Part shown: piece after piece, positions 1 through 12,054 of the stretch
How the letters are laid out: each line of letters starts with the position of its first letter
How positions within the stretch are numbered: the stretch's first letter is position 1
NCBI RefSeq assembly: GCF_988243305.1
Contig: NZ_OZ547136.1
Strand: one strand, 5' to 3'
DNA length: 64,000 bases
Translations under genes and position numbers: made by a program
The notes under the pieces: generated by a model
What the model was told of the DNA's origin: nothing
The model's database searches: none
What the model saw: the letters and a program-made list of their open reading frames with translations, nothing else

Positions 1-1730
1 AAAACAGTGACTCACCCTTTAAAGATGTTTTTTCTAATGCGCATGAAGTCACAGCAGAAACGAAAGAAAATCGAACAATATACACACAGGTATTTGAAAT
101 TGATAATGGCATCGAGAAAAGATGCATTAATCACTGGCATACATTATGCAATCTGCCAGCCAGCGATCATGCTGTTTATATTTGTGGTTGGCAAGATATT
201 ACCGAGACGCGTGATTTAATTCACGCTCTCGAAGTAGAGAGAAATAAAGCGATCAATGCAACTGTCGCAAAAAGTCAGTTTCTGGCAACAATGAGTCACG
301 AAATAAGAACACCAATAAGCTCCATTATGGGCTTCCTGGAACTTCTGTCGGGTTCTGGTCTTAGCAAGGAACAACGGGTGGAGGCGATTTCACTTGCCTA
401 CGCCACCGGACAATCACTCCTCGGCTTAATTGGTGAAATCCTTGATGTCGACAAAATTGAGTCGGGTAACTATCAACTTCAACCACAATGGGTCGATATC
501 CCTACTTTAGTCCAGAACACTTGTCACTCTTTCGGTGCGATTGCTGCAAGCAAATCGATCGCATTAAGTTGCAGCAGTACGTTTCCTGAACATTACCTGG
601 TTAAGATCGACCCTCAGGCGTTTAAGCAGGTCTTATCTAATTTACTGAGCAATGCTCTCAAATTTACCACCGAGGGGGCAGTAAAAATTACGACCTCCCT
701 GGTTAACATTGATGACAACCACGCTGTAATCAAAATGACGATTATGGATTCTGGAAGTGGATTATCACAGGAAGAACAACAACAACTGTTTAAACGCTAT
801 AGCCAAACAAGTGCAGGTCGTCAGCAAACAGGTTCTGGTTTAGGCTTAATGATCTGCAAAGAATTAATTAAAAACATGCAGGGCGATTTGTCATTAGAAA
901 GTCATCCAGGCATAGGAACGACATTTACGATCACAATCCCGGTAGAAATTACCCAACAAGTGGCGACTGTCGAGGCAAAAGCAGAACAACCCATGACACT
1001 CCCTGAAAAGTTGAGCATATTAATCGCGGATGATCATCCGACCAACAGGCTATTACTCAAACGCCAGCTAAACCTATTAGGATATGATGTTGATGAAGCA
1101 ACTGATGGTGTGCAAGCGCTACACAAAGTCAGTATGCAACATTATGATCTGCTTATTACTGACGTTAATATGCCGAATATGGATGGTTTTGAGTTGACTC
1201 GCAAACTCCGTGAGCAAAATTCTTCCTTACCCATCTGGGGGCTTACAGCCAACGCACAGGCTAACGAACGTGAAAAAGGGTTAAATTGCGGCATGAACTT
1301 ATGTTTGTTCAAACCGTTGACCCTGGATGTACTGAAAACACATTTAAGTCAGTTACACCAGGTTGCGCCTATTGCACCTCAGTATCGCCACCTTGATATC
1401 GAGGCCCTGAAAAATAATACGGCGAACGATCTACAACTGATGCAGGAGATTCTCATGACTTTCCAGCATGAAACGCATAAAGATCTACCCGCTGCGTTTC
1501 ATGCACTAGAAGCTGGCGACAACAGAACTTTCCATCAGTGTATTCATCGCATCCACGGTGCAGCTAACATCCTGAATTTGCAAAAGTTGATTAATCTTAG
1601 CCATCAGTTAGAAATAACACCTGTTTCAGATGACAGTAAGCCTGAAATTCTTCAGCTGCTGAACTCTGTTAAAGAACACATTGCAGAGCTGGACCAGGAG
1701 ATAGCTGTTTTCTGTCAACAAAATGACTAA
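1..1730 (+). CDS. evgS: Hybrid sensor histidine kinase EvgS, C-terminal part (5' end lies outside the window)
   Basis: Frame 0 is open from the window edge with no stop until 1728-1730. H-box motif ATMSHEIRTP near 285-315, followed by an ATPase region, a receiver domain (LIADDHPTNR...DVNMPNMDG) and a C-terminal HPt-like segment. Listed ORF 291-1730 is the Met-initiated tail of this longer frame. Confidence 0.9.
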   Translation, partial: NSDSPFKDVFSNAHEVTAETKENRTIYTQVFEIDNGIEKRCINHWHTLCNLPASDHAVYICGWQDITETRDLIHALEVERNKAINATVAKSQFLATMSHEIRTPISSIMGFLELLSGSGLSKEQRVEAISLAYATGQSLLGLIGEILDVDKIESGNYQLQPQWVDIPTLVQNTCHSFGAIAASKSIALSCSSTFPEHYLVKIDPQAFKQVLSNLLSNALKFTTEGAVKITTSLVNIDDNHAVIKMTIMDSGSGLSQEEQQQLFKRYSQTSAGRQQTGSGLGLMICKELIKNMQGDLSLESHPGIGTTFTITIPVEITQQVATVEAKAEQPMTLPEKLSILIADDHPTNRLLLKRQLNLLGYDVDEATDGVQALHKVSMQHYDLLITDVNMPNMDGFELTRKLREQNSSLPIWGLTANAQANEREKGLNCGMNLCLFKPLTLDVLKTHLSQLHQVAPIAPQYRHLDIEALKNNTANDLQLMQEILMTFQHETHKDLPAAFHALEAGDNRTFHQCIHRIHGAANILNLQKLINLSHQLEITPVSDDSKPEILQLLNSVKEHIAELDQEIAVFCQQND

Positions 1731-1785: not shown

Positions 1786-2931
1786 TTATGATGAGAACTC
1801 CTGGCGAATTTGTTCCCCATGTTGGTCGAGCGTTGCCGCTCCCGGCATAACATGCGGGTCCGCGCAGCCGCTGATTTTTATCGGATTACCTGGCATCATT
1901 ATTCCCCCGGCTTCAATCAACATATTTCTCGCCTGAGTTTGTGGCAAATTAATGGCCTCAGCCACACTTAATAACGGCGCGACGGGCACACCAACTTCAT
2001 GTATTTTGGCTAACCAAACTTCAGCTGCCTGCGTTTTTAACGTTCGCTCAATATATTGTTTAAGAATAGCCTGGTTTTGTACGCGTAAAATATTGCTGCT
2101 AAATCGGGGATCATTAACCAGTTCCGTAAGCTCCAGTGCCTGGCATAACGCAGAAAAAAGCTTGTCATTACCACAACAAATAGTAATCGGCTTATCCTGA
2201 GTATCAAAAACATCAAAAGGTGCCATGTAGGGATGGCGATTTCCCAGGCGTTGTGGTGACTTCCCTGTCGCAATATATGCCATCAGACCATGCTCCAGAA
2301 AACTCAGCGTGGCATCAAACATCGCTATATCGACATGCGCCCCTCTCTGGCTCTTTTCGCGGCCATAAAGTGCACTCACTATTCCGCTGAATAAATAGAC
2401 ACCGCCACATAAATCCGCAAGAGAGGTACCCACGCGCACTGGCGGAGCATCAGGGTACCCTGTTTCCATCATTATCCCGCTCATTGCCTGAATGATGGTA
2501 TCGTAGGCTGGAGCATCTTTTAGCGGGCCGGTATGCCCAAAACCTGACGATGAAGCATATATGAGACGCGGGTTGATTTCTTGTAGCGTTTCCCATGAAA
2601 ACCCCAGTTTTTCCATTGTACCTGGGCGAAAATTCTCAGCTAATACATCAGCTTGTTTAAGCATATTTATAAATATACTTTTATCGTGATCATTCTTTAA
2701 ATCAAGAACCACACTCTCTTTGCCATGATTAATAAAACTGTAATAGAGTGACTGTCCATCCACATAGGGACCAAATGTGCGGGTATCATCACCATGACCC
2801 GGCGGCTCAACTTTAATTACCCTTGCGCCCATATTACAAAGAAGTTGAGTTCCGAAAGGTCCATTAAGGACATGTGTCATATCGATAACTAATAAGCCTT
2901 CAAACGGCCCTTTGCATTCATTATTTGTCAT
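1786..2931 (-). CDS. yfdE: Acetyl-CoA:oxalate CoA-transferase, family III CoA-transferase
   Basis: ORF 1786-2970; translation matches family III CoA-transferases (CaiB/BaiF-like). I prefer the ATG at 2931 (MTNNECKGPF...) over the upstream GTG at 2970. Confidence 0.85.
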   Translation of the reverse strand: MTNNECKGPFEGLLVIDMTHVLNGPFGTQLLCNMGARVIKVEPPGHGDDTRTFGPYVDGQSLYYSFINHGKESVVLDLKNDHDKSIFINMLKQADVLAENFRPGTMEKLGFSWETLQEINPRLIYASSSGFGHTGPLKDAPAYDTIIQAMSGIMMETGYPDAPPVRVGTSLADLCGGVYLFSGIVSALYGREKSQRGAHVDIAMFDATLSFLEHGLMAYIATGKSPQRLGNRHPYMAPFDVFDTQDKPITICCGNDKLFSALCQALELTELVNDPRFSSNILRVQNQAILKQYIERTLKTQAAEVWLAKIHEVGVPVAPLLSVAEAINLPQTQARNMLIEAGGIMMPGNPIKISGCADPHVMPGAATLDQHGEQIRQEFSS

Positions 2932-3004: not shown

Positions 3005-3949
3005 TTATGAAACCAGTCGACTGACATAAATCCACAAAGGAGCCGTGACGACAAAGCCCAGTACGCTCACAGCCAATGATGCTGTACCAGTGCGGGTGTA
3101 GACATTAAACCGGCTGGCAATAATGATTCCGGAGAATGCCGGCGGTAAGGCGCCTGCCAGTACCATCATCTGCAAATGTTCGCTGTTCAAATGACATGCC
3201 ATACCCACGAGAAGCAGCGCCAGTGGCATCAGAATCAGCTTCAGGAAGGTGTTATAAGCAATTTCAGCACTGAACTCGAATTTATGTGCAGCCAGAGTCA
3301 ACCCCGCAGCGAATACCGCTACCCCTGAGTTAGCCTTCGCAATCAGATTAAAGGTTGGGTCCCATGCTGCCGGAATTTTTACCCCAACCAACACCAGGAT
3401 CGTTGCCAGAACAGGTGCCCATACTACTGGCTCCTTTGCCGCAGAAATTAATGCGCTCAGATTACTATTCTTCTTACCATCTGCTCCTGAGGAAGGATTC
3501 AGCAAATACAGACCAATAGGAATAGTAATTGCGTTAACAATAATAGAAATAATTGCTACAACTAAACCTGTTGATACGGAATCACCATAAATAGGATCGA
3601 GAACTGCAAATCCCAGGAATCCGATGGTAGGTGAACCTGCAATTAATGCACATACTGCTGCTTCTGCATGAGTACGTTTAAAAAATTTGTAGCAACCAAA
3701 CCAGGAGAAAAAGAAACATCCGACAATAACCACAAGTGATACAAGGGTCAGGCGAGTGTCCGCAAAAATCATTTCCCTGTTTGCCCGGGTAATAGAAACA
3801 AATAGGGCCGCAGGAAGAGCGTAGTTTAATACCAGTTTATTAAATGCCCGGGCTTGATCTTCTGAAAAAGTTTCTCGTCTGCCGCTAAAATAACCCAACA
3901 GCATGATTACGATAATAGGCAATAAATCGCCAATAAAAAATGTTAGCAT
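3005..3949 (-). CDS. yfdV: AEC-family (auxin efflux carrier-like) membrane transporter, putative oxalate/formate-linked
   Basis: 314 aa polytopic hydrophobic ORF; sits in an operon between oxc and yfdE. Confidence 0.85.
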
Positions 3950-4017
3950 AATAGTATTTCCGATAAGGGTCCCCTCACCATCGATAATGAGTTGGCAAGA
4001 GGAGACGATGTCAGTAT

Positions 4018-5712
4018 TTAATTACCAGCGACTTGTTTTGGGTTAAGTTTGGTAATATGGCCACTTTCAGTTCCTGCTGCAGGGTCGATGACCACATTAA
4101 TAATGGTCGGTTTGCGCGACTGAATACCGGTGGTTAAAGCATGACGAAGTTCATCTGTCGTAGTGACGTTATAGCCAACGCCACGAAACGCATCCATTAA
4201 TTTGTCATACCTTGCATGGTGCAATAGATCTGTTGGTGATGGTGCACCAGCGCCACTGAGATCAACACCGTCTCCTCTGTAGATGCCGCCATTATTAAAA
4301 ATAACGATCGTCACCGGCAGGTTATATCGACAAATCGTTTCAATCTCCATCCCACTGAAACCAAAAGCACTATCACCTTCAATGGCGACAACCGGAGAAC
4401 CAGAGGTCACGCTAGCACCGATGGCATAGCCCATACCGATGCCCATGACACCCCAGGTACCACAATCCAGACGGCGACGTGGTTTATACATATCAATAAT
4501 ATTTCGTGCATTATCCAGGGTATTTGCACCTTCATTAACTAAATAAATATCCTGGTTCTCGCGCAATACATCGCGCACAGCACTTAATGCATTAAAGTAA
4601 TTTAATGGTTGAGTATCTGTACTTAATTTTTCATGCATTTTTTGTGCATTTTGCTGCTTGTGGATATTTAAAATATCGCGCCATACCAGTGGAGTCGTAA
4701 ATGTGTTTTGTTTCAGTTCTGCCAGCATACCTTGCATACTGGATGCAATATCGCCAACGACTGGCACAGCAATGGGGCGGTTGCTGTCAATTTCCTGCGG
4801 TTCAATATCCAGTTGAATAAACTGTGTATCTGCCGCCCATCCTTTTTTACCGTGTGCCAGTAACCAATTCAGTCGTGCACCAACAAGCATGACAACGTCA
4901 GCATTTGCCAGGGCAAACGAACGCGCAGTTGCCGCAGAAAGTGGATGTGTATCTTCGAGGATCCCTTTCGCCATAGACATTGGCAGGAATGGAATCTGGG
5001 CACTTTCAATAAATTCACGAAGCTGTTCATCCGCTTGTGAATACGCCGCGCCTTTGCCAAGGATAACTAATGGTCGTTCAGCTTTTGCTAAAAGCGAAAT
5101 TGCGCTAGTGACTGACTTCGGGCATGGCAATAATGCTGGCGACGGATTTTCAACTTTTACAATCGTGGTTAACGCTTCGTCTTTTTCCATCGTCGCGGCC
5201 AGGACATTTGCTGGTAAATCAAGATAAACTCCGCCAGGGCGACCCGATACTGAGACCCGGATAGCGCGTGCCAATGCAATGCCAAGATCCTGCGGCTGAT
5301 TAACGCGAAATGCTGCTTTGGCATACGGTTTTGCCGCATTCATTTGGTCCAGCTCTTCATAATCACCTTGCTGTAGGTCGACGATCGCGCGGTCGCTGGA
5401 GCCGCTAATCATGATCATCGGAAAACCATTTACCGTTGCGTTGGCCAATGCGGTCAAACCATTGAGGAATCCTGGCGCAGACACTGTCAGGCAGATCCCT
5501 GGTTTTTGGGTAAGAAAACCGCTTGCCGCAGCGGCATAGCCTGCCGACTGCTCATGACGAAAACCAATATAACGAATGCCTTCCGCCTGGGCATGGCGTG
5601 CCATATCCGTCACAGGAATACCTACAACACCATAAATAGTGTCAATATTATTCTGTTTTAATGCTTCAACGATGATATGCATACCATCTGTCATTTGAAG
5701 TTGATCTGACAT
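4018..5712 (-). CDS. oxc: Oxalyl-CoA decarboxylase (thiamine-diphosphate dependent)
   Basis: 564 aa ORF with ThDP-enzyme architecture including a [14 protein letters not shown]-type ThDP-binding motif. Confidence 0.9.
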
Positions 5713-5765: not shown

Positions 5766-7016
5766 TCAGATGGCGTGGTTTTGCTTCATTGCAGCAATTT
5801 CATCGTCGCTATAACCCAGCTCCTGCAATACCACAGCGGTATGTTCACCTAATAGCGGCGCAGCTTTAATATCCGGCGTAAAGGCAGAGAATTTCATTGG
5901 ACAACCAACTGTCAGATATTTTCCACGCAACGGTTGTTCCACTTCAACAACACTGCCACTTTGGCGCAAAGAGGGATCAAGTGAAATTTCTTTCATACTT
6001 AAAACCGGTGCACAAGGAATATCAAACTGAGTCAAATAGGCCACTGCTTCATGTTTATCAATAGTGACAGTGTATTTTTCGATTTCAGCAAAAATATCGA
6101 AAATATGTGGCTGTCGGGCATGGGCTGTACTGTATGCCGGATCGGTAATCCAATCTGGTTTGCCGATGGCTTTACAGGTGTTTTCCCAGTTTTGCTCCTG
6201 AATAGTGAAATAAATATAGGCATTAGGATCGGTTTCCCAGCCTTTACATTTCAGGATCCAGCCAGGCTGACCGCCACCACCCGCATTACCACCGCGGGGA
6301 ACTGCATCACCAAATGTGCCATTCGGATACTGCGGGTATTCTTCCAGATAACCCAATTTATCGAGACGCTGCTGGTCGCGTAATTTCACGCGGCAAAGGT
6401 TCAATACGGCATCCTGCATTGACATGGTGACTCGTTGCCCACGCCCCGTTTTTTCGCGATGCAGCAAAGCAGCAAGTAAACCGATCAGTAAATGCATTCC
6501 GGTGTTGCTGTCACCCAACGCTGCAGCGCTTACCAGCGGCGGACCGTCCCAAAACCCCGTAGTGGATGCCGCGCCACCCGCTGCCTGAGCAACGTTTTCA
6601 TAGGCTTTTACATTCACATAAGGCGAACACTCATCAAACCCTTTGATCGAACCAAAAATCAGACGTGGATTGATTTCTTGAATATGCTCCCAGGTGAAGC
6701 CCATGTGATCAATGGCCCCTGGATGAAAGTTCTCGACTAAGATATCAGCTTCGCGGATCAGCTTTTCCATTACCTCTTTGCCTTCCGCTGTTTTGGTATT
6801 TAATTCAATAGAACGTTTGTTACTGTTAAGCATGGTGAAGTAAAGCGCATCGATATCAGGAATATCTCGCAGCTGGTGACGCGTTACGTCACCAACGCCG
6901 GGACGTTCAATTTTAATGACGTCAGCGCCAAACCAGGCCAGCATTTGAGTACAAGATGGGCCAGATTGCACACCGGTGAAATCGAGAACTTTAATTCCTT
7001 GAAGTGGAGTTGACAT
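5766..7016 (-). CDS. frc: Formyl-CoA:oxalate CoA-transferase
   Basis: 416 aa family III CoA-transferase immediately upstream of oxc in the same orientation. Confidence 0.9.
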
Positions 7017-7267
7017 AGCAATACCTATTAGTTAATTAAATATATGTTAATTTAGCGTTTATTTAAGGCATAACGCCCTCTATAAATAATCCGCAAAATA
7101 TCGTCGTAGCTGCACTCGATATTTTTAAATTCCTGTATCAAGTGCTGAAAATCATTTCATCGCCACTTCCAATTCCTTTCTGCATGGTAAGTAGTGAGGA
7201 CGAAAAGAAGAATATGATAAATATTGGTTCGCGGTAATCAGAGAGAGCCGCGACATTTGTGATGTTA

Positions 7268-7285
7268 TTCTTACAACTGTAAGAA
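7268..7285. promoter_or_regulatory. EvgA-box-like inverted repeat TTCTTACA-AC-TGTAAGAA upstream of frc
   Basis: Perfect 8-2-8 palindrome matching the EvgA consensus (TTCPyTACA N2 TGTAPuGAA), about 250 bp upstream of the frc start. Confidence 0.6.
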
Positions 7286-7528
7286 GCGCCGGTGATTTAC
7301 AAGTAAGGGTATGATTACGCCTTTTAAAGCGTACCATAAAACATAACATAATAAATGATTTGTGATGACACGGGATTATTGCGGTTTACTTTGAGGAAGA
7401 TAAAATGCGAGTTTATAGAACCGCGAGCGCCAAATAATTTTATGACCACAACCTGTCGTATTGTGGTCATAAAAAATTGTCGGCTGGAGGGAGTTAAATC
7501 CTTTACCTCAATATACTGCCTGTCAGCG

Positions 7529-8161
7529 TTAGTTCACAAACAGTGCTTCGCTATCGACGATGATTCCATCTTCCGCACCTTTAAGCGCCAGGTTTGCCTC
7601 GTAGTATTGCTTTTTATCAAGCAGTTTCTGCGCATCAGCAAGTGCATTACGAGTCTGTTTGAGCGGCATCAGATATTGGTTTTCCATTACGCCAACACCG
7701 GCCAGGCGCAGCTCTTCCATTGCGCCCTTTTTATCCCCTTTCGCCATTTTTTCGTTGGCAATTTTTATCGCGGCTTCTTTTTCGGGTGTCGCTACATAAC
7801 TCTCAGAAATTCCGACAGATGCATTAATGACAATATATTGGTCATCATTGACATTGGTCTTTTTACCTGGCTTAGCGAACTTTGCCCATTCGGTACTGTC
7901 ATCTGACAACAAAGCTGAAGCTTCATTGGTCAGTTCTTTTGCCTTTTCCGGATCGCCATGAAACAGAGCCAAGCGCGCTACCTGCACGTCACGCATCGCA
8001 TATAAACCTTGTTCAGAGATACGCTCTGCTGCTGCCGTTTTCTGGGTTTGCTGAACTTGCTGAGTTTGCTGTTGTGCCGCTACCGGTGCATTATCAGCCG
8101 CCCATACAGTTGAAGATGCCAGAATTGCTGTGACCATCGTAGCCATAATTAAACGTTTCAT
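7529..8161 (-). CDS. yfdX: YfdX-family periplasmic protein (EvgA-induced)
   Basis: 210 aa ORF with an N-terminal signal peptide ([21 protein letters not shown]) and a Q-rich region. Confidence 0.8.
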
Positions 8162-8258
8162 ACTTACCTCATTCTTTAACAGTTTTAGAAAACGCCGCCA
8201 TCATATTGGGTGAGCATGAAATGAGAAATCAGAGAGCAACGGTCATTTTGAAAGGGTT

Positions 8259-8276
8259 ATCTTACAGTTGTAGTTA
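8259..8276. promoter_or_regulatory. EvgA-box-like site (TCTTACA-GT-TGTAGTTA) upstream of yfdX
   Basis: Imperfect 8-2-8 inverted repeat of the EvgA-box type in the yfdX-ypdI divergent intergenic region. Confidence 0.45.
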
Positions 8277-8296
8277 TTATCGCAAGAAGTATTTTA

Positions 8297-8314
8297 GTCT
8301 TACAATTGTAGGAA
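8297..8314. promoter_or_regulatory. EvgA-box-like site (GTCTTACA-AT-TGTAGGAA) upstream of yfdX
   Basis: Second near-consensus EvgA-type palindrome, about 140 bp upstream of the yfdX start. Confidence 0.5.
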
Positions 8315-8456
8315 TATGCTTCCTGTCACAGAGAACTATTCTTATATACCAAAAAGAGATGTCATTTATTATATCGATGTAAATACTGATTAATTATATG
8401 TAAATACAGCAATAACGTCGTAGGTTTTCAGTGAACCATTTTCAGGATAACTTTCT

Positions 8457-8732
8457 ATGAAAGTAAACTTAATGCTTTTTAGCTTATTTTTATTGGTCTC
8501 TATTATGGCATGCAATGTTTTTGCATTTTCTATTTCTGGTGGTGGTAGTGAGGCGAGCTATAAAGAGACGGAAAAAACGTCAGCGATGACGACAACTCAC
8601 TCTACAAAATTTCAGCCATCACAGGCGATTTTGTTAAAAATGAGAGAAGATGCGCCACCATTAAACCTCACAGAAGAAATTCCGCCCCCTTTTCCGACAA
8701 AGGCGAATTATCTTATCCATCCTGTGCGATAG
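8457..8732 (+). CDS. ypdI: Small putative lipoprotein YpdI
   Basis: 91 aa ORF; signal peptide ending in a lipobox-like ...IMAC. Confidence 0.7.
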   Translation: MKVNLMLFSLFLLVSIMACNVFAFSISGGGSEASYKETEKTSAMTTTHSTKFQPSQAILLKMREDAPPLNLTEEIPPPFPTKANYLIHPVR

Positions 8733-8808
8733 CGTCTGTCACACGGCAGGTGAACAATCATGTCTGATGCTGATGTGAACACCTGCCCAAATGAGCCATC
8801 CTGACCCA

Positions 8809-10679: not shown

Positions 10680-10751
10680 GTGAAATATTTCTTTATGGGC
10701 ATTTCTTTTATGGTCATCGTTTGGGCCGGTACTTTTGCCCTGATGATCTAA
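10680..10751 (+). CDS. ypdK: Small hydrophobic protein (23 aa) YpdK-like
   Basis: GTG-initiated ORF V/M-KYFFMGISFMVIVWAGTFALMI with GGAGAG 7-8 nt upstream. Below the ORF-track cutoff; found by reading the lpxP-alaC intergenic region. Confidence 0.5.
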   Translation: MKYFFMGISFMVIVWAGTFALMI

Positions 10752-10815
10752 AAGCAAACTGTGCAATGAAAAACAGGAGCCATCTGGCTCCTGTTTGCAT
10801 TTCTGGCGATGGTGT

Positions 10816-12054
10816 TTATTCCGCGTTTTCGTGAATATGTTTGCTGCTGGCGGGTAGTAAACCGTCGGCACGGAACATCGCTTTAATTCCACGAATCGCC
10901 TGACGAATACGGTCGCGGTTTTCAATCAGTGCAAAGCGAACATGCGTGTCGCCGTAGTCGCCAAAGCCAATCCCCGGAGAGACACAGACCTTCGCTTCGT
11001 TCAGCAGCTTCTTGGCAAATTCCAGCGAGCCCATGGCAGCATACGGTTCCGGGATTTTCGCCCAGACATACATCGAAGCCTTCGGCATTTCGACCATCCA
11101 GCCCGCTTCATGCAGCCCTTTAACCAGTACATCACGGCGGCGTTTGTACTGTTCGGCAATATCGCGCACGCACTGTTGATCGCCCTCCAGCGCCGCAATC
11201 GCTGCCACCTGCAACGGCGTAAAGGTGCCGTAATCGTGATAGCTTTTAATACGTGCCAGCGCGCTGACCAGCGTTTTGTTGCCAACCATAAAGCCGATAC
11301 GCCAGCCCGCCATGTTGTAGCTTTTCGACAGCGTAAAGAACTCGACCGCCACATCGCGTGCACCCGGCACCTGCATGATTGACGGCGCTTTCCAGCCATC
11401 GTAGACGATATCGGCATAGGCCAGGTCATGGACCACCAGCACATCGTAGCGTTTCGCCAGCGCCACAACCTTCTCAAAGAATTCCAGTTCCACGCATTGC
11501 GCGGTTGGGTTCGACGGGAAGCCGAGGATCATCATCTTCGGTTTCGGATAACTTTCGCGAATGGCGCGTTCCAGTTCGTTGAAGAAATCGACACCTTCCA
11601 CCAGCGGCACTGAGCGTACCTGCGCCCCGGCAATCACCGCGCCGTAAATATGAATCGGGTAGCTTGGATTAGGCACCAGTACAGTGTCACCATGATCCAG
11701 CGTCGCCAGCATCAGATGCGCCAGTCCCTCTTTCGAACCAATGGTGACGATAGCTTCTGATTCCGGGTCGATCTCGACGTCGTAGCGATCCTGATACCAG
11801 TGTGAAATGGCGCGACGTAGCCGCGGAATGCCGCGTGAAGTGGAGTAACCATGCGTGTCCGGGCGCTGGGCCACCGTACATAATTTTTCGACGATGTGCG
11901 GCGGAGTCGCACCGTCCGGGTTACCCATACTGAAATCGATAATATCTTCGCCGCGCCGACGCGCAGCCATTTTCAGTTCAGCGGTAATATTAAAAACGTA
12001 GGGCGGGAGACGATCAATGCGCGTAAAGCGACGTTCAGGGCGAGTGTCAGCCAT
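10816..12054 (-). CDS. alaC: Glutamate-pyruvate aminotransferase (PLP-dependent, class I/II)
   Basis: 412 aa ORF with aminotransferase fold motifs (...[12 protein letters not shown]...). Confidence 0.9.

Follow-up and report, generated by a model that had tools for sequence, protein, structure and literature searches.

The 18-bp palindrome located upstream of frc in this Escherichia coli DNA very probably binds phosphorylated EvgA (EvgA~P) as a dimer and stands before an internal promoter that serves frc-oxc-yfdV-yfdE. The reading of this element as an EvgA operator is correct and already published. The present analysis established the sequence of the palindrome, how improbable it is by chance, how well it is conserved, and that its motif recurs at other promoters of the EvgA regulon; EvgA binding and EvgA-dependent induction are taken from the literature. 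The EvgA box of the K-12 frc (yfdW) promoter is said to have been described by Masuda and Church in 2002/2003 and by Itou, Eguchi, and Utsumi in 2009.

Several further sources connect EvgA with this locus. EvgA-binding inverted repeats are marked before both yfdX and yfdWUVE in the legend of Fig. 2 of the YfdE structure paper (PMC3720670). In a review, the frc promoter is named as one of those that EvgA “strongly binds” (PMC8147483). Constitutive evgS mutants show the highest fold increase for frc; in the same work, oxc is singled out as the EvgS-regulated gene with the strongest induction, and the EvgA sites detected were confined to targets already known (PMC4283999). Ribosome profiling combined with RNA-seq under acid stress records the co-induction of yfdX, frc, yfdV, and oxc (PMC10746267). 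By genomic SELEX, the spacer between frc and yfdX contains one site for RNA polymerase and one for H-NS (PMC3946193). Direct EvgAS control of the oxalate genes, as proposed in the first-pass annotation, is thus supported by the exact motif, its recurrence at EvgA targets, the literature, and the near-invariance of the site in E. coli.

The palindrome and its genomic setting

The window is the whole stretch of DNA analyzed, 64,000 nt in length. Of 5426 complete E. coli genomes, 5420 contain the segment from 6600 to 8600, and several (e.g., CFSAN061763) match it at 100% identity. The window also encodes part of the cognate EvgS/EvgA system, namely the 3′ part of evgS, while evgA, which adjoins evgS in K-12, lies outside. 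The sensor kinase gene had been placed just upstream of the oxalate module; it is indeed present in the window, on the plus strand, but it is convergent with yfdE and abuts the 3′ end of the operon instead of lying upstream of it. The features are collected in Table 1.

Table 1. Features of the window around the frc operator. The gene layout combines the list of open reading frames (ORFs) with RefSeq annotation moved over from a 100% identical record (offset 1401).
Feature	Position	Strand	Basis and remarks
evgS, sensor kinase, 3′ part only	1-1730	+	RefSeq transfer; convergent with yfdE
yfdE, acetyl-CoA:oxalate CoA-transferase, final operon gene	1786-2931	-	RefSeq transfer (3187-4332 minus the offset); function from PMC3720670
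yfdV, putative transporter	3005-3949	-	ORF list and RefSeq transfer
oxc (yfdU), oxalyl-CoA decarboxylase	4018-5712	-	ORF list and RefSeq transfer
frc (yfdW), formyl-CoA transferase	5766-7016	-	ATG at 7016; ORF list and RefSeq transfer
Predicted frc 5′ leader, ~190 nt, AT-rich	7017-7207	-	Deduced from the candidate promoter
Candidate -10 hexamer TATCAT of an EvgA-dependent frc promoter	7214-7219	-	Predicted
EvgA box, 18-bp perfect palindrome TTCTTACA-AC-TGTAAGAA	7268-7285	.	Sequence read; frc promoter operator
yfdX terminator-like hairpin	7438-7474	-	Terminator scan; RNA fold -18.7 kcal/mol, z -6.7
yfdX-frc spacer, non-coding, AT-rich	512 bp between yfdX and frc		
yfdX, gene upstream of frc, with a separate EvgA-controlled promoter	7529-8161	-	ORF list, RefSeq, and PMC3720670
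Weaker EvgA-box-like site, 3 mismatches	8259-8276	.	Pattern scan; 38 bp from the 8297-8314 box
EvgA box upstream of yfdX, GTCTTACAATTGTAGGAA, 1 mismatch	8297-8314	.	Pattern scan; same site in K-12
ypdI	8457-8732	+	Annotation transfer

The two arms of TTCTTACAACTGTAAGAA are exact reverse complements held 2 nt apart, as an 8-2-8 inverted repeat is expected to be and as had been stated. The box lies upstream of frc, within the spacer, and its end is 251 nt from the frc ATG, in agreement with the distance of about 250 bp first given. Measured against TTCYTACANNTGTARGAA, the palindrome has 0 mismatches; by chance, 5.6e-5 exact matches are expected per 64 kb, and for the AT-rich 512-bp spacer the figure is 1.4e-6. 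When up to three mismatches are allowed, the window contains three matches, compared with 0.44 expected, and all of them are upstream of frc or yfdX. Duplication of a common promoter region was considered and set aside, as the alignment of the frc and yfdX promoter regions covers only the box and 6 nt, with no extended paralogy.

The sole other perfect 8-2-8 inverted repeat of the window, AGGAGCCATCTGGCTCCT, is at 10775-10792, between the convergent genes ypdK (plus strand, ending at 10751) and alaC (minus strand, ending at 10816). This repeat is probably the stem of a bidirectional terminator.

EvgA boxes at other promoters and across genomes

The 18-bp arrangement TTCYTACA-N2-TGTARGAA is what we take to be the EvgA recognition consensus. 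A full-text literature search with the printed consensus and the box sequence returned no relevant match. An empirical check of this pattern covered ~54 kb of K-12 sequence around further published EvgA targets. The frc box of K-12 has 0 mismatches and ends 251 nt from the ATG, while the boxes of safA and yegR have one mismatch each (111 and 106 nt, respectively). The two yfdX sites carry one and three mismatches at 135 and 97 nt, ydeP has two mismatches at 243 nt, and a box with two mismatches occupies the common divergent spacer of emrK and evgA (173 and 224 nt to the respective ATGs). In the K-12 segment examined, the ydeP box is at 8731-8748 and its ATG is at 8487. At a limit of two mismatches, the ~54 kb yields one further match only, inside mdtE. 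The claimed match to the EvgA consensus is supported by 0 mismatches at the palindrome and by recurrence of the pattern at other K-12 EvgA targets. Among the EvgA sites examined, the frc box alone combines 0 mismatches with perfect dyad symmetry, the others having one to three mismatches. The scan of the K-12 gadE locus, a reported EvgA target, found no box with four or fewer mismatches upstream of the gene; because of this, the pattern is considered to miss some EvgA sites.

The boxes of ydeP, safA-ydeO, yegR, emrKY/evgAS, and yfdX thus share the same 18-bp repeat with frc. A -10-like hexamer also begins 56-62 nt past the box centre at frc, yfdX (counted from the proximal box), safA, emrK, ydeP, and yegR. 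In the window, the spacing between the 8259-8276 site and a TATGAT hexamer is much like that between the frc box and TATCAT. The promoter of ydeP resembles that of frc in its long distance from box to ATG (243 and 251 nt, respectively). In contrast to frc, yfdX harbors two boxes, which are 38 bp apart.

A more distant parallel is found in Bordetella, in which the EvgA homologue BvgA controls a different regulon in a different organism. BvgA sites are inverted repeats with a TTTC(C/T)TA-like half-site, which are bound by a phosphorylated dimer of the NarL/FixJ family and are located upstream of sigma-70 promoters. These sites presumably resemble the frc EvgA box, with half-site spacing and sequence that are not identical.

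Within E. coli, the box is nearly invariant. The K-12 box (NC_000913.3, 2493506-2493523) is identical and has the same position relative to frc; the two strains carry one and the same element, with no functional difference. The 512-bp spacer is ~97% identical to that of K-12, and none of the ~15 substitutions in the window strain falls in the box. When 44 nt covering the box and its flanks are used as the query, 4176 records match at 100% identity and a further 1060 at 93%. The latter type was sampled in FDAARGOS_1267 and NR379 and differs at three positions, all just outside the box (CACCGGCGC to CACTGACAC). In the three sampled genomes FDAARGOS_1267, ECE313, and NR379, every flank SNP is outside the box. 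Queries of 30 nt, for which each match needs a 28-nt exact word across the whole box, recovered the window-type flank in 4326 genomes and the variant flank in 1037. At least 5363 of 5426 complete E. coli genomes thus retain an intact box, and the box region is altogether absent from ~20 of the 5426. In strain MIN12 (NZ_CP069657.1), frc has given way to an IS1A element (1749-2446 of the locus segment), along with most of the spacer, the EvgA box included, and the 5′ end of oxc. MIN12 is thereby a naturally occurring knockout for the oxalate module.

Outside Escherichia, the closest Frc proteins among the matches listed (species representatives) are those of Moellerella and Providencia, with 86% identity, followed by Paraburkholderia with 78%. 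The frc-oxc loci of Moellerella wisconsensis and Providencia stuartii are preceded by AT-rich regions of 540-800 bp and by upstream genes other than those in E. coli. The Providencia upstream ORFs resemble, by eye, the Fe-S and cytochrome b subunits of formate dehydrogenase. The frc upstream regions of Moellerella and Providencia contain no EvgA-like box and have no significant similarity to the E. coli spacer. On the basis of these closest loci among the matches listed, the frc box therefore appears to have been recruited to EvgA control in a lineage-specific manner.

Candidate promoter, leader, and terminator elements around the box

A terminator-like hairpin follows yfdX, and the box is downstream of it, a point absent from the first-pass annotation. 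In ECE313, the hairpin stem carries a compensatory double change from A:U to G:C (ATGACC...GGTCAT to ATGGCC...GGCCAT), and the preserved pairing suggests that the stem is under selection. Because a strong hairpin separates yfdX from the box, frc is considered to have its own promoter region. The box stands between yfdX and frc, and the usual description of the locus is yfdXWUVE with two entry points under EvgA control.

The putative promoter of frc is defined by the TATCAT hexamer, which starts 57 nt downstream of the centre of the frc box. No good -35 element is present downstream of the box. With this hexamer, transcription of frc would start near 7207, and the box would be centred near -70. 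In FDAARGOS_1267 and NR379, which have the variant flank, the hexamer is TATTAT, nearer to consensus, and this flank type is present in about 1040-1060 genomes. The TATTAT variant could alter basal frc expression.

A different promoter was predicted for K-12 frc in the genomic SELEX study (PMC3946193). That sigma-70 prediction, TTTATA-18-AATAAT, corresponds to ~7404-7375 (minus strand) of the window; it thus precedes the box by ~100 bp instead of following it, and the window strain reads TTTATC in place of the first hexamer. The predicted element may be a second, EvgA-independent start that is either constitutive or silenced by H-NS. Transcription from 7404-7375 would cross the operator.

The leader between operator and start codon had been called unusually long. 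The 251-nt distance from box to ATG is confirmed, but it is not unique (ydeP, 243 nt), and the leader itself, estimated from the candidate promoter, would be ~190 nt. Both ydeP and frc are among the genes most strongly induced by EvgA, and their deduced leaders are ~180-190 nt in length. The fold of the frc leader is unremarkable (z-score -1.84). An Rfam scan of 6800-8700 identified no family, the only matches being two sub-threshold ones to miRNA models on unrelated hairpins, and no characterization of the frc leader was found in the accessible literature. The leader includes a 15-codon ORF, MQKGIGSGDEMIFST, at 7138-7185 on the minus strand. It is intact in all five aligned strains, among which one Gly-to-Ser and one synonymous change occur. 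An obvious Shine-Dalgarno sequence is lacking for the MQKGIGSGDEMIFST ORF, and the ORF does not appear in the searchable part of the acid-stress ribosome-profiling supplements. On these two grounds, with the profiling limited to the part searched, a functional role for MQKGIGSGDEMIFST was set aside, and the ORF is probably a chance occurrence.

A broader proposal holds that EvgA has its highest affinity for the frc box, which would make frc the first and strongest responder, and that the long AT-rich leader adds a second layer of control via downstream H-NS silencing, binding of CsrA to GGA motifs, or the ORF at 7185-7138. This proposal is speculative and rather unlikely.

Proposed mechanism and alternative explanations

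The proposed mechanism starts from the acid-sensing EvgS/EvgA two-component system, of which EvgA is a NarL/FixJ-type response regulator. Mild acid would activate EvgS, and the resulting EvgA~P dimer would occupy the box. As judged from the predicted geometry, a weak sigma-70 promoter, with a poor -35 element and TATCAT as its -10 element, would lie ~70 bp downstream of the box centre, and EvgA~P would recruit or stabilize RNA polymerase at this promoter. EvgA~P probably also relieves H-NS silencing of the AT-rich spacer by counter-silencing. The transcript would begin at ~7207 and run through a leader of ~190 nt into frc. Since yfdX has a strong terminator and its own pair of EvgA boxes, the two units would be co-induced from separate operators.

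Three other explanations of the palindrome have been weighed. The TAAGAA half-site presumably resembles RcsB-type half-sites, and a different LuxR/NarL-type helix-turn-helix regulator of the acid or envelope stress network, for example RcsB or GadE, might be the main user of the site. RcsB is reported to regulate yfdX in Klebsiella (PMC6394985). Against such a regulator, the full 18-bp arrangement recurs specifically at promoters of the EvgA regulon, published work assigns the site to EvgA (PMC3720670, PMC8147483), and frc induction tracks evgS-constitutive alleles (PMC4283999). Principal use by another such regulator is judged to be very improbable. The palindrome might instead act not as a DNA operator but as an RNA hairpin for processing, stability, or attenuation. 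The locus is often called a single yfdXWUVE operon, so read-through RNA from yfdX to frc could include the palindrome, which is able to fold into a stem of 7 bp capped by 4 unpaired nt. However, little stability is predicted for this hairpin (-6 kcal/mol, z -1.4), and 22 of 200 shuffled sequences fold as well. The hairpin is AU-rich and lacks a U tract, the terminator scan gave no call on it, and a far stronger terminator is located upstream at 7474-7438. A hairpin would also leave unexplained the recurrence of the sequence at unrelated EvgA promoters, and an RNA role is given slightly less credence still than the use of the site by another regulator. The palindrome was rejected as an intrinsic terminator on the same fold values and the same missing U tract.

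That the palindrome is a functionless chance repeat in AT-rich intergenic DNA draws on the frequency of generic perfect 8-2-8 inverted repeats: about one occurs per 64 kb, and two are observed in the window for ~1.1 expected. The specific sequence, however, is expected only 5.6e-5 times per window, more than 5300 genomes keep the box intact despite variation in the neighboring bases, and like sites are present at five other EvgA-regulon promoters. A chance origin is effectively refuted and has the least probability of all. The palindrome is accordingly best read as the EvgA operator of the internal frc promoter.

EvgA control of frc-oxc-yfdVE has been on record since 2002-2009, and the biological gain is small. 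Sequence reading alone nevertheless recovered a genuine published operator. The small additions are that this box is the sole perfect palindrome among the EvgA sites examined and that it is intact in ~99% of 5426 complete E. coli genomes. Further small additions are that the ydeP box is similarly distant from its gene and that the frc loci closest to that of E. coli outside Escherichia, among the matches listed, lack the box.
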